From contig JANJXX010000003.1 in the NCBI GenBank assembly GCA_024720975.1, positions 32,001-96,000 on the forward strand: a stretch of 64,000 nucleotides of DNA, read 5' to 3'. The notes under the pieces were generated by a model that did not search any database, was not told where the DNA came from, and saw only the letters and a program-made list of their open reading frames with translations. Of this stretch, positions 15,372 through 34,600 are shown one piece after another (position 1 is the first letter of the stretch; each line of letters begins with the position of its first letter). The stretch comes from Thermoproteota archaeon (GTDB lineage: Archaea; Asgardarchaeota; Njordarchaeia; Njordarchaeales; Panguiarchaeaceae). The position numbers and the translations under genes are program-made.

Positions 15372-16544
15372 TTGGATCAAGAGGTAGTTTTTCCACTTGT
15401 CGCCTTCGTTGGACAGGACTTATTCAAGTTAGCCCTACTGGCTATAGCAGTTAATCCATCAATTGGAGGACTCTTAGTTAGGGGAGAAAAGGGCACTGGA
15501 AAATCCGTCCTGGTGCGGGCCCTGGCCGATGTTCTTCTACCAATAGAAGTAGTAGCCGATTGTCCATTTAACTGCGATCCTCACAACCCACTTCTAATGT
15601 GTCCACAGTGTCGTGAGCGTTATAATCGGGGAGAGAAACTGCCAGTGAAGCAGATGAAAATGAAGGTTATCACCCTTCCAATAGGAGCGACTGAGGATAT
15701 GGTTCTCGGCACAATAGATATCGAGAAAGTTCTCAAGGAAGGAAAACCGGCATTAAAACCAGGTATATTAGCGCGAGCAAATAGAAATATTCTTTACATA
15801 GATGAGATAAATTTATTGCCTGATCACTTGGTAGACATAATACTGGATGCTGCTGCAATGGGTTTTAACTACGTTGAAAGAGAGAACATAAGCTTCTCGC
15901 ACCCAGCTAAATTCATTCTAGTAGGCACAATGAACCCAGAAGAGGGTGACATTCGACCGCAACTACTAGATAGACTCTCACTGTGCGTGGACGTGAAGGG
16001 TATAGATTCTCCAGAACTACGCGCGGAGATTATTAAGAGGAATATGGAATTTCAGCTAGACCCCATAGCGTTTAGAGAGCGATACAAGGAGCAGACGGAG
16101 AATTTAAGAAATAGAATCGCCTATGCTAAAAGCCTCATAAATAGCGTTGAAATTAGTGATGCGATGATACTCCTAATAGCAAAACTATGTAGCACTCTTG
16201 AGGTTGACGGACACCGTCCTGACATCGTCATTGCTCAGACAGCAAGAGCTCTTGCAGCATTAGATGGAAGAGATAGCGTTGAACCTTCTGACATTCAAAT
16301 AGCAGCTCAGCTGGCTCTTATACATAGAACGCGAAAGGGTGGTCTTCTAGAGCCACCAACACTGGAAGAGATTGAGGAAGCATTCAAGAAAGCATTAAAA
16401 GAAGTAAAATCAAAGCTCACTATTAAAATCGAGGAACGCTACAAGACAGCCAGAGAGTACATCGAAAACATTCTCTTGACTCCTATAGTGCCTAAAGACA
16501 AAGGTAAAGTTTCTTTGAAGGGTGAACAGCACTTTTTTCGATGA
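15372..16544 (+). CDS. Mg/Co-chelatase ChlI/BchI-type AAA+ ATPase
   Basis: FP...VGQ, GEKGTGKS Walker A, CPFNCDP, ATEDMV.GT.D, LYIDEINLL, GTMNPEEG, RPQLLDR, DGHR.DI. Confidence 0.9.
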   Translation: MDQEVVFPLVAFVGQDLFKLALLAIAVNPSIGGLLVRGEKGTGKSVLVRALADVLLPIEVVADCPFNCDPHNPLLMCPQCRERYNRGEKLPVKQMKMKVITLPIGATEDMVLGTIDIEKVLKEGKPALKPGILARANRNILYIDEINLLPDHLVDIILDAAAMGFNYVERENISFSHPAKFILVGTMNPEEGDIRPQLLDRLSLCVDVKGIDSPELRAEIIKRNMEFQLDPIAFRERYKEQTENLRNRIAYAKSLINSVEISDAMILLIAKLCSTLEVDGHRPDIVIAQTARALAALDGRDSVEPSDIQIAAQLALIHRTRKGGLLEPPTLEEIEEAFKKALKEVKSKLTIKIEERYKTAREYIENILLTPIVPKDKGKVSLKGEQHFFR

Positions 16545-17793
16545 AAGTGAGATACCCGATCAGATAAGAAAACTACCTCGAAAGTCAAAATCCTTGAATA
16601 ACCTGAAGAGCATCGATAAAGAGAACGTTGACAAATTCCTGAGTAGCGATAGGAAAAGGAGTATTCTAAAAGCATTCTTCAAAGCAAGATTACTCGAACA
16701 TATAAGACATTCAATACCAATCAGGGGTAAAATTAATATCAAGCCCGACGTTGAGTATTCAGAGCATGCACACGCAAGAAAAGCAAGACTAGGAGTAGCC
16801 AAAGTCAAAATTGTTGAAGAGGACTTTCCGATATTGGAGAAAGTCAGCATCAGGGATCTCTTGTCGATGCCATCAATAAAACGCGCAAATACAACAGCGC
16901 CAAAATTAAGGCGTATCCGTCCCATGCGTGCAGAAGGGAGCTATTATGGTCTGAATTACACAGCGACATACGGTTCTAGAGGATTCTACGTGTCTTACAC
17001 AATGAATAAGAAATTCCATAGTAGAATAGCGCTAGTACCGACACTAATATCAAGGCTTCTATATCAACGGGGAAAGGTGAGTTCGGGAGAAATAAAATTC
17101 GAGTTAAGAGAGGGAAAACAAAGGCTTCTACTTGTAATAGTCTTAGATGCAAGCGAAAGCATGCAGGCATTTATCCCCATAATCGCACGCACCCTATTAC
17201 GCTTTCATGAACGAGCATGGAAGCTGCGAAGCCTCACTGGCCTAATATCAGTACAAGAGAACACGACAAAAGTTCTAGTCTATCCAACGACAAATATTAA
17301 CAAAATTATTAGCGGCTTCTTCCAAGTGGAGTTCTGGGGTAGGACGCCACTTGCACTTGGCCTCCTTAGGGCATTCAGGCTGATATTATCTATGCATGCT
17401 AAGTCTCCTGATTTAGTACCTAGGGTCATTTTATTCTCCGATGGACTAGCTAACATACCTCTTCAAATACCGGTTGACAGAAATGTAAGAAATTACTTTG
17501 AATCTGATGCTCAAGCGGATGTAATTGCTGCTGCTAGACTACTTGCAAGAAGAAACGTAAAGCTAATAACTGTCAATCCATGGCACATTAACTACTGGCC
17601 CGCAAAGTATATAATATCCCCATCTGAACTTCTCAAAATTGCAACTAGAATCACCGGGGGTATTTACTTAGGCTTCAATTTAAGCCAGGAACATCCATCA
17701 ATAATACCACCCAGAATGATTAACATTGACGATGCCACCGTGGAGGAGCTCGTAGATAGGATCCTGTGTGCAATATTTAAGTCAATTAGCTGA
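16522..17793 (+). CDS. VWA-domain protein, equivalent to the C-terminal half of ChlD
   Basis: Basic linker region, then IALVPTL, MIDAS DASES, GRTPLALGL and LFSDGLAN as in ChlD VWA domains. Overlaps the AAA+ gene in the +1 frame. Confidence 0.8.
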   Translation: MNSTFFDESEIPDQIRKLPRKSKSLNNLKSIDKENVDKFLSSDRKRSILKAFFKARLLEHIRHSIPIRGKINIKPDVEYSEHAHARKARLGVAKVKIVEEDFPILEKVSIRDLLSMPSIKRANTTAPKLRRIRPMRAEGSYYGLNYTATYGSRGFYVSYTMNKKFHSRIALVPTLISRLLYQRGKVSSGEIKFELREGKQRLLLVIVLDASESMQAFIPIIARTLLRFHERAWKLRSLTGLISVQENTTKVLVYPTTNINKIISGFFQVEFWGRTPLALGLLRAFRLILSMHAKSPDLVPRVILFSDGLANIPLQIPVDRNVRNYFESDAQADVIAAARLLARRNVKLITVNPWHINYWPAKYIISPSELLKIATRITGGIYLGFNLSQEHPSIIPPRMINIDDATVEELVDRILCAIFKSIS

Positions 17794-31651: not shown

Positions 31652-34600
31652 TTAGTAGTTACCGTTACCGTCTGGCTCCAAGGCATCTGGTTCTCCATCA
31701 TACGAATCCATAAAGCAAATACCTGATATCGTTGCATTTTCAACAGTGCTTGCATTAGGATGAGGTTTAATTAGCCACTCTCCTTGCGAATCTTTGTAGA
31801 GAACTATTACACGCGTGTTGCTGTAGTCATGAAATGTCCATTGTACAGTACTTATTAACAGCACAATCTTACCAGCGAGTATATTGGGGTTCCAATCTCC
31901 TGATACTAGATAGAATCCTGGTGTATAGTAGTAAATTACCCACCAGAACATTACTATTTCAACTTCAAAGCTCATTAGAACCATGGACCATGCATCACCA
32001 TCTTCAACACCTTCCCAAGGTGATAATAAACCGTATACGTCTTCCTTCTCTGGTCTACCGATTATTGTAAGGTATTCGTCATCGTACTGGCTATCAAGAT
32101 AGGCATTTCCAATGTAATCATGGAAGGCATCGGTCCATTCAATATCTATCGTGGCACTGAGATCTTTAGTGCCACCACCTCCAAACCAAATGGAGTACGA
32201 TGGCAGACTTGATGGAGCATCCTGTATCTGGGGTGATATGTAGTATTGCGCGGGGTCATGTGCTAGTGGATTAGAATTCTTATCTAGTGCTTTTAATTCT
32301 TCAGCCTCACTAGATTTGTATGAACCACTTGTCCAGCTTCCTGTTGATGGCGGATCATCACCAGTATCATTGTCTTCGAAGAATATTGGATCATCATCCC
32401 ATACTATCAACATTGAGTAATATACTAGCCATTCAGGACTCATAGGCACCTCTATCTTAAAGTATACTGTAACATACACCCATTGGTTGAAGTCTATGGC
32501 TGGGGAAAGCCCCGACATACCTTTGAATTTTATCGTATTTGCTAATGAGGAGGTATCGTATATTCCTGTGAAGTTTAGTTTGCTGAGTTTGACATCGCGT
32601 ATGTAGCATCCCCAAATCTTTAGATCAAACGTTACGTTTACTATGCTAAAGTTGTAGCAGTGATATTTTACCATGCTCCACAGCCAATCTTTAAGTGTGG
32701 TGTTTGAGAAACCGCGAAATCTATTTACTCTCCAAAGTCTGACTTGTACATCAAAGTAGCTATCTTTACCAGCTTCCATGGTTAGATTGTTTATATACAC
32801 CTCACCAAAGAAGTCATCTAATGTCCCAGAGGCTTGTTGGCCAGCTTTGCTACCAAAGTGATATCTTCCATTATAAACCAACAGAGCCTTAAAGTTCTCG
32901 AGTCCTACATTAAATCCTAAGCTACCCACGGCCTGGTGATAATTAAGGAGAATCCAGTTATAGTTCCACAGATTTATATTGCTTGGATTATTATTCCACA
33001 CTGGAACTGCATAATTAGCAGCATTTTCGATGCCTCCATATAGGTCATTTGTGTAGTACGTTCCATAACCTATCGGTACAAGAGCAACAGCATCGGCATT
33101 TATGCCATTGACGTAAGTTTTAACCATTGAGTTTAATGCCGTTTGAATGACATCGGGTGTTATGATGAACATGAATTTCGCAGATAGTGCTTCAAGATTG
33201 CTTATATTAACACCGAATATTTCAAGATCTATCTTAGTACTCGCCCATACGTTTATTGACCATCCTTTTAAGGTTGCATCTAGGAACTCTTGTAAGTATC
33301 TGTTCTTAAGAAATACTATCTCTATCGTTACATTCGAAGGGACCCCGGCCCTCAGATCCGCTACTCCAACTATTTTTTGTATTCCAAAAGCCGTGTATGT
33401 GTTAAGAGGCTCCATGTGTAGAATTGTCTCCATTCTAAGTATTTTTATGTTCAGAGAGCTTTGCACTGGTTCAATTAATCTTATGGTAGCAGAAAGCTTA
33501 TCCTCACCAATTACCTTCCAAGATAAGTTCTCGGTGCTGTATCTAATTACATTGTTTAATAAAGCCGATGCATCAACTTCACCCTGCATTAGGGCTTCGT
33601 AGTAATCGCTTACGCAGTATCGAGTGTTGTTATACTTGAAGTTTATTTCAAGTACTAAGTAGTTCGAATCAAAGAGCCTTATTCTTACTGAGCCCCAAAC
33701 GTCCATTGTAACATTCTTTTTCACGAGCAGATCCTGTAAAAATCCTTGAAGTGCAATTCTGTTTGACTTGAATATAGTTACGTTTACACCAAACGTTGTG
33801 TTTTTATCCAAACTTAATTCTAGGTATGAAATGAATACGTTAGCTACTTTGACGCCGCCATATAGTATATCCACACTTAGGTTGTTAACTTCTACAGGTA
33901 TCTTAGACTTGGACACAGTCACATTGATATTTAGCAGCGCTGTTGAATAATCTTCCCCTAGTACTGTTATACTTCCTACAGTCATATTGAACATACTCAA
34001 AACGGTTTCTTGAACACCTGAAGACTCTAGTTGTTCACTTACGTTCCAACCGAATACCTGTCTGAGTGATATGTTTTGGACGGTGATTCCAAAGAGGCTG
34101 ATTCTGCCAACTCTTGCGTCTACATTAATCTCGATGTTGTAGTTGTTTATTAAGTTCATGAGAAATTCTGCCGTTTTTGGTCTGTCCGCGAGCATTATAT
34201 ATGCGACTATTGTGGTATTACCTAAGGCCGCTTCGATCTTAGGAACATTTATTTTGGCCACTACAGTATTGTCTTTGATTAATTTAGCATTTATATCATA
34301 CGCTGCGAACGATATGTTGAATCTATTCATAAAGTCTACTTCCGCACTAAGAACATAATATTTAACTTGATCCTGCTGATCATAGAAGCTACCAACGTAG
34401 TTGAGACTCTTGTACGCGATAAGCGATTTAAAGTCTACTGGTACTATTCCGGCGCTCGCGTTTGTGGCCGACATGTTAAAGGTTAAACCTTTTAAGTCTA
34501 GAGACAAATTCAAGGTTAAATATTGTGTTGAGCTGTCAAATAGTTGGACCACTATAGATCCGTTAACATTAACAACAGCGTTATTACCCGCTAGATAATC

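Follow-up and report, generated by a model that had tools for sequence, protein, structure and literature searches.

The locus and its two reading frames

We analysed a stretch of 64,000 nucleotides (nt), hereafter the window, which spans positions 32,001 to 96,000 of the forward strand of contig JANJXX010000003.1 (assembly GCA_024720975.1), and we focus on window positions 15372 to 17793, where an open reading frame (ORF) for a ChlI-like AAA+ ATPase overlaps a second ORF for a VWA protein and where the two probably form one gene that is joined by a programmed +1 ribosomal frameshift. The host is a hot-spring Asgard archaeon of Candidatus Njordarchaeota, which NCBI puts within Promethearchaeati. 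Its assembly (G000) comprises 1.36 Mb in 29 contigs and is 81% complete, and its class is represented by 14 genomes in the collection.

All features of the locus lie on the + strand. The first ORF (15372..16544) begins with TTG, encodes 390 amino acids (aa) with the C-terminus ...GEQHFFR, and would give the short product of the locus, a ChlI/BchI-like AAA+ ATPase by its matches to TIGR02030 and to ChlI structures. Its translation shows the Walker A motif GEKGTGKS of the AAA+ module (15483..15506) and a four-cysteine insert, CPFNC...CPQC (15561..15611). The second ORF (16522-17793, GTG start, 423 aa) lies one base forward of the first. An earlier note on this DNA had described the 3' end of the AAA+ ORF as CAC TTT TTT CGA TGA (16530-16544) and the VWA frame as open only from 16519, and the sequence bears out both statements, with TGA at 16516-16518 closing the VWA frame upstream. 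The two frames are thus both open over 26 nt (16519..16544), and since this is the sole such region, any change of frame must fall within it. It contains the proposed slip site, TTT TTT CGA (16533..16541, with TTT TTT at 16533-16538 and CGA at 16539-16541), whose T6CG core is invariant in 20 junctions, and the zero-frame stop codon TGA (16542..16544). From 16540 to 17793 the +1 frame continues through a basic linker and a VWA domain for 417 codons plus the stop codon, an extent that we base on the ORFs and on the relaxation of third codon positions in relatives. The VWA domain (Pfam VWA_2, 17131..17445), recognized from the domain match, from the residues of its metal ion-dependent adhesion site (MIDAS) and from a match to structure 2X31, carries the MIDAS motif DASES at 17146-17160.

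The two ORFs differ in what precedes their start codons. A GGTG sits 8 nt upstream of the TTG start at 15372, and the same tetranucleotide is found 4-16 nt before a candidate start in 25 of the 34 long ORFs of the window, the AAA+ ORF included, a count that is biased because starts preceded by GGTG were preferred. As the earlier note had remarked, GTG 16522 lacks a well-spaced GGTG of the kind that most genes of the window have.

The encoded proteins

The first ORF matches TIGR02030 (E 3.9e-117) as well as the AAA_lid_2 and Mg_chelatase domains, and its nearest solved structures are ChlI (6L8D and 8OSF, E about 1e-99) and BchI (1G8P), with E values that range from 1e-99 to 1e-79. The translation also contains a Walker B motif, ILYIDE, and the ATPase motifs are intact. 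The cysteine insert (15561-15611), which follows Walker A, may be a zinc knuckle or a metal site. In the second ORF, which matches the VWA domain, the MIDAS residues D203, S205, S207, T269 and D301 are invariant among relatives (alignment A1), and a profile built from this ORF and related sequences detects the BchD integrin-I domain (2X31, E 1.4e-15).

The earlier note had foreseen a fusion with ChlD architecture (AAA+, linker, VWA). Both ORFs match a single model of a fused protein, TIGR02442, of whose 641 positions the first ORF spans 1-318 and the second 409-613. Against this model the halves reach 480.9 and 83.3 bits, short of its cut-off of 779.45, and against TIGR02031 they reach 236.8 and 41.2 bits, short of 499.55; because all scores lie under the curated cut-offs, we name the proteins ChlI-like and ChlD-like and do not treat them as equivalog members. 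The linker of the predicted long product is basic, not acidic and proline-rich, and no membrane hairpin was found in it, the only hydrophobic windows being residues 5-37 of the AAA+ module.

Conservation of the junction among relatives

The VWA part was used to search first 60 relatives, next the genomes of the class and finally 400 genomes across the phylum, and metagenome contigs of JGI were scanned as well. A scan of the genome contigs with the single protein found no relative; relatives were found with alignments A2 and A3. The homologues occur in three arrangements, namely a single frame, a +1 split and a -1 split. Single-frame fused homologues are present in the same genus (G001) and elsewhere in the phylum, and 39 fused loci are found among the metagenome matches. 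In all 12 of the +1-split loci, which come from 11 related genomes, the overlap contains TTT TTT CGN in the AAA+ frame, and the same holds for 14 of 15 metagenomic loci with a +1 overlap. The T run of the +1-split loci always consists of exactly two in-phase TTT codons, and the orthologues thus show T6, not T5, with the same +1 offset as the gene studied here.

After removal of duplicates, the 75-nt contexts amount to 20 distinct junctions, one of which (G013) has further breaks in its VWA part. T6CG are the only invariant bases in these 20 junctions, flanking positions reaching a consensus of at most 0.9, and the wobble position of the arginine codon is free (CGC in 9, CGT in 9 and CGA in 2). 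The +1-frame residue after the two phenylalanines is D, A, V or E, and the first base of its codon is G in every junction; since that base is fixed while the residue varies, the constraint acts on the zero-frame codon CGN rather than on the residue of the +1 frame. The zero-frame stop codon of the relatives lies 0-5 codons past CGN, and this varying distance indicates that the signal does not include the stop. The earlier note had pictured a tRNA-Phe in the P site that slips from UUU to UUC at a CGA codon next to a stop. The comparison supports such a slip and takes the stop codon out of it.

Two further sets of relatives help to place these junctions. The -1-split genes, which belong to other families of the phylum, carry runs of A8 to A11, the published signal of fs-chlD genes; they are L026, L027, L029 and L031 in family f9 and L062-L064 in family f24, and one genus (g40) contains both fused and -1 genes. 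In G017, a single frame reads GAT TTT TTC GTT CAG (D-F-F-V-Q), which equals the +1 junction predicted for its nearest split relative. We give this case limited weight, as the frame of the same gene is broken once more at a point upstream.

Some loci depart from the common pattern. L075 (Ga0180301_10003515), which is close to G003, has the junction T6CGC TGA, and its VWA match is back in the AAA+ frame from residue 68, implying that the frame changes again some 160 nt downstream; the assembly may be wrong here, or the copy may have decayed. L111 and L121, both of one metagenome clade, have short overlaps (+1 of 11 nt and -1 of 7 nt) with neither T6 nor a poly-A run; their genes are perhaps truly separate, or a different signal is in use. 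The genus studied here also has about 45 extra residues (KLTIKIEERYK...KGEQH, 16395-16532) between a conserved basic helix and the two phenylalanines, which in other families (compared with L041, L042 and L054) follow the helix directly, so that either an insertion or a relocated site may be considered. The MAFFT alignment puts the two phenylalanines of this genus some 45 residues downstream of their position in the other families; the P-[RK]-K-S motif that is shared after the site suggests instead a genus-specific insertion before a homologous site.

Motif conservation and codon usage

To what extent could codon usage by itself produce such a motif? TTT TTT CGN occurs in frame only once in the 343,067 codons of the genome's long ORFs, where 3.3 occurrences are expected, and the one occurrence is the site described here. 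In the same ORFs, TTT TTT spells 72 of 607 Phe-Phe pairs (11.9%), and CGN accounts for 30% of the arginine codons of the genome. Phe-Phe-Arg would hence be spelled TTT TTT CGN in about 3.6% of cases, which sets the null chance at about 0.036 per lineage; among the 35 Phe-Phe-Arg tripeptides that are present, one is spelled in this way, again at this site. The AAA+ parts of the relatives are 53-78% identical, and the relatives are not independent, but at this level of identity synonymous sites are expected to be randomised. Judged from these counts, the conservation of the motif is greater than chance or codon bias would produce.

In-frame TTT TTT pairs are themselves strongly depleted throughout the genome, with 72 seen and 199 expected from the codon frequencies. 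Phe-Phe is mostly written TTC TTT or TTC TTC, and this may reflect avoidance of T6 runs in their capacity as oligo-T terminators or slippage sites. Two ARAGORN calls of 'tRNA-Stop(tta)' were dismissed as misread intron-bearing tRNAs of 86-94 nt and are not suppressors.

Translation of the VWA frame from the junction

If the VWA frame were entered by initiation, one would expect a start codon that is conserved in its position. The earlier note had considered an independent conserved start for the VWA gene in orthologues, and none was found there: start codons of the VWA frame are not conserved in position, and in G003, the closest relative (61% identity), as well as in the second copy of G002, there is no ATG, GTG or TTG for 42 codons after the site. 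The first 45 codons of the +1 frame nevertheless look like coding sequence. In three pairs of relatives, the identities at the first, second and third codon positions are 0.66/0.68/0.39, 0.82/0.84/0.58 and 0.82/0.93/0.53; a fourth pair shows the same pattern more weakly (0.50/0.59/0.34), and in a fifth the relaxation is marginal (0.67/0.73/0.53). The relaxation of third positions thus begins with the first codon past the site, which indicates that this frame is read as protein from the junction onwards, even where it has no start codon.

A proposed +1 ribosomal slip

From these comparisons we consider it probable that a programmed +1 slip of the ribosome joins both frames and that 15372-17793 is one recoded gene of the fs-chlD type. 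Standard decoding would yield the ChlI-like AAA+ ATPase of 390 aa, terminating at TGA 16542-16544. In some ribosomes, the peptidyl-tRNA-Phe on the second UUU (16536-16538) would shift by +1 and pair with UUC, the A site holding at that time the infrequent arginine codon CGA, and decoding would resume in the +1 frame at GAU (16540). UUC is a better wobble pair than UUU for the anticodon GAA. The predicted long product has 806 aa (389 + 417), an AAA+/linker/VWA organization and the junction ...GEQHFF-DESEIPDQIR.... A +1 slip, or an mRNA with U5, would yield the junction peptide GEQHFFDESEIPDQIR, and slippage by -2 within the T run would lead to the same frame with one extra phenylalanine and the junction peptide GEQHFFFDESEIPDQIR; we infer that the slip is in the +1 rather than the -2 direction. 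By analogy with the ChlI-ChlD motor, the products of 390 and 806 aa may assemble as a mixed AAA+ complex, and the efficiency of the slip would then set their ratio. We found no second ChlI-like gene in the genome, so the short product would be the only subunit of the I type.

Several observations weigh against this proposal. The support for it comes from sequence comparison, with no RNA run among the runs that match the locus, and +1 frameshifting has never been shown experimentally in a cellular archaeal gene (PMC8211752). Across the genome, UUU_CGN as such is not avoided (135 seen, 138 expected); CGN codons are only moderately rare, at 4-5 per thousand each (CGA 5.3 per thousand), and tRNA-Arg genes with the anticodons GCG, UCG and CCG are present. 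In this genome, GTG 16522 lies within the overlap and could serve as a start. Many fused genes also keep TTT TTT CGN, so that its conservation could in part reflect something other than the joining of frames. Finally, no downstream stimulatory RNA structure was found, the z-score being +1.7 for the locus itself and -2.0 to +2.2 for the relatives, which share no common fold; the lack of a present or conserved structure would also fit a +1 site. An upstream stimulator was likewise not found in the 20 junctions, where the flank is purine-rich and no position of it is invariant.

Alternative explanations

A split of this kind may also arise from a one-base error in the T run of a fused chlD gene, or from the decay of a pseudogene; homopolymer runs are prone to error, and fused relatives do exist. 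The earlier note had asked whether reads support the T6 run, and Logan contigs from four hot-spring metagenome runs, which come from four studies (2017, 2017, 2022 and 2024), match 16480-16900 with 0 differences and 0 gaps. The assembly may derive from one of the four runs, and the others are independent. As they agree base for base, the T6 is not an assembly slip, and T5 was not seen. The same split with T6 recurs in 20 distinct junctions from different samples, Walker A and MIDAS are kept, both halves are under constraint at the codon level, and the fused relatives differ by indels after CGN and not in the length of the T run. We therefore regard a broken or misassembled gene as an extremely remote prospect. 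A further explanation assumes two separate, translationally coupled genes, with no fusion product and with a VWA protein that is initiated either at GTG 16522 or by ribosomes that re-initiate past the TGA. In addition to the GTG in the overlap, G004 has an ATG in its overlap, in G010 and G006 a GTG directly follows TTC, and split pairs of AAA+ and VWA genes are generally common in prokaryotes. This explanation would have to accommodate starts that are not conserved in position, a start-less stretch of 42 codons under protein-level constraint in G003 and in the second copy of G002, and a GTG 16522 without the GGTG that precedes most genes here; it leaves unexplained why T6CG is invariant at synonymous sites in 20 junctions, and fused homologues show that both halves work as one chain. 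We consider separate genes unlikely.

Slippage of the polymerase is harder to tell apart from slippage of the ribosome by its outcome, as a polymerase that drops one U on T6 would give U5 mRNAs that encode the fusion with the same junction, FF followed by D, and hence the same product as a +1 ribosomal slip. The run is a homopolymer, the -1 relatives use runs of A8-A11 for which published work leaves polymerase slippage open, and the depletion of TTT TTT (72 against 199 expected) fits a T6 that is hazardous at some level. Six bases are nevertheless short for efficient slippage, as is generally known from bacterial and viral cases, and the length of the run never varies from two in-phase TTT codons, unlike that of the poly-A runs in the -1 relatives. 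An invariant CG together with a free wobble base is predicted by a mechanism that acts at the level of codons and not by slippage of the polymerase, which we accordingly hold to be improbable. The +1 ribosomal slip remains our preferred explanation.

The site in single-frame relatives

The motif is not restricted to split genes, for TTT TTT CGN is kept in frame at the domain boundary of many AAA+/VWA genes that are read in a single frame. Carriers include both copies in G001, of the same genus as the host (L046 and L052), three genomes of family f17 (L057-L059), one genus of family f20 (L024, L028 and L066-L071), L087, L097 and L098, and several metagenome contigs; one single-frame lineage reads TTT TTT CAT. 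What distinguishes fused from +1-split genes is small indels in the roughly 20 nt that follow CGN, the length of the T run being unchanged. In a FastTree phylogeny built on the AAA+ domain, a clade with support 99 comprises 16 split genes that carry the motif as well as fused genes, 8 of them with TTT TTT CGN and 1 with TTT TTT CAT, and only one gene of the clade lacks the T run. Split and fused genes are interleaved within this clade, and the starred branches of the tree force at least four switches of arrangement.

This distribution could mean that UUU_UUU_CGN is an old slip site from which two products are made in both arrangements, the slip giving the long product in split genes and the short one in fused genes. 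We put this forward tentatively, as a serious possibility towards which the sequences do not quite tip the balance. In the fused genes, the +1 frame meets a stop codon 2-16 codons after the site, which is the level expected by chance (null median 5-8 codons) and speaks neither for nor against a short product. If the idea is correct, a one-base indel flips the default product of the gene without loss of the second product, and cellular genes of Asgard archaea would share a conserved +1 signal whose core is that of the UUU_CGN sites in eukaryotic viruses.

Relation to known recoding systems

Frameshifted 'magnesium chelatase' genes were found in 2013 (PMC3711429), and -1 slips on A_AAA_AAR have been validated in E. 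coli reporters, with genes of Methanocaldococcus and Methanococcus among those tested (PMC3711429, PMC5009743). A later survey lists 169 fs-chlD genes of -1 and +1 types, among which -1 is the more frequent (PMC9227772), as the earlier note had said, and some carriers of fs-chlD have neither a chlorophyll nor a B12 pathway (Kuznetsov et al. 2022, PMC9227772). Genes of this family share with the locus studied here a ChlI-like ORF that overlaps a start-less ORF for a linker and a VWA domain, fused homologues and a conserved slippery overlap, and in archaea and bacteria alike one gene is reported to give I-like and D-like subunits, as we propose here. The validated signals of the family are of the -1 type, on A_AAA_AAR or poly-A, often with a downstream structure, whereas here the signal is +1, reads UUU_UUU_CGN and has no such structure. 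That the locus is a new +1-type member of the published fs-chlD recoding family, and not a new principle, is well supported by these parallels in sequence.

UUU_CGN is a recognised context for +1 shifts, again as the earlier note had stated (PMC3498833, PMC5052127), and UUU_Ynn is known to be prone to +1 shifts in bacteria (PMC5009743). Influenza A PA-X (UCC_UUU_CGU, PMC3498833) and the plant amalgaviruses (UUU_CGN, PMC5052127) share with our site the core, in which a tRNA-Phe in the P site re-pairs from UUU to UUC before an infrequent CGN codon, and need no downstream structure. They differ in that they operate on eukaryotic ribosomes and in viral genes, and in the preceding codon, which is UCC in PA-X and an invariant UUU here. 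The likeness is one of mechanism and not of common descent. Bacterial dnaX (tau/gamma) likewise has a shared N-terminal AAA+ part, a slip at the domain boundary and products that join one complex; it belongs to another protein family and uses a -1 slip (A_AAA_AAG) or polymerase slippage, and it is the short product that results from the slip in E. coli. The +1 shifts of prfB and antizyme also rely on a slow event in the A site, but in these cases a stop codon occupies the A site, and prfB has in addition an upstream element that resembles a Shine-Dalgarno sequence; at our junctions the zero-frame stop follows the site at a distance of 0-5 codons, and no upstream element is conserved. According to a 2021 review, only one frameshift has been proven in a cellular archaeal gene, and it is of the -1 type (PMC8211752).

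The possible target of the predicted motor

The proteins resemble the ChlI/BchI-ChlD/BchD motor of class I (ATP-dependent) chelatases in that the first ORF is close to ChlI, the VWA domain matches BchD and the MIDAS is intact, and they differ from it in the basic linker, in scores under the cut-offs and in their genomic context. The window contains no large chelatase subunit (CobN/ChlH), as the earlier note had pointed out, and a search of the whole G000 assembly (81% complete) did not find CobN/ChlH (PF02514), nor ALAD (PF00490) and porphobilinogen deaminase (PF01379). CobN was found in one of the 14 genomes of the class, G008 (G008:C237:1717-4926 and L049), as a homologue with an open frame of 1259 aa. 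The chlD-like gene of G008 is fused and has neither the FF site nor a T run. The likely role of the locus is that of a two-subunit-type AAA+/VWA motor whose target is other than a tetrapyrrole chelatase subunit.

Conclusions

Annotation pipelines will split this locus into a 'magnesium chelatase' and a 'VWA protein' and hence miss the predicted product of 806 aa. The locus draws attention to a ChlI/ChlD-like machine in a genome (81% complete) without a known chelatase partner or tetrapyrrole pathway, and its eight-base signal, which can be mutated, would offer a handle on how an AAA+/VWA motor sets the ratio of its subunits. Should the slip be confirmed, it would join a very small set of conserved +1 frameshifts in the cellular genes of archaea, at a site in an Asgard archaeon that has the UUU_CGN core used on eukaryotic ribosomes.

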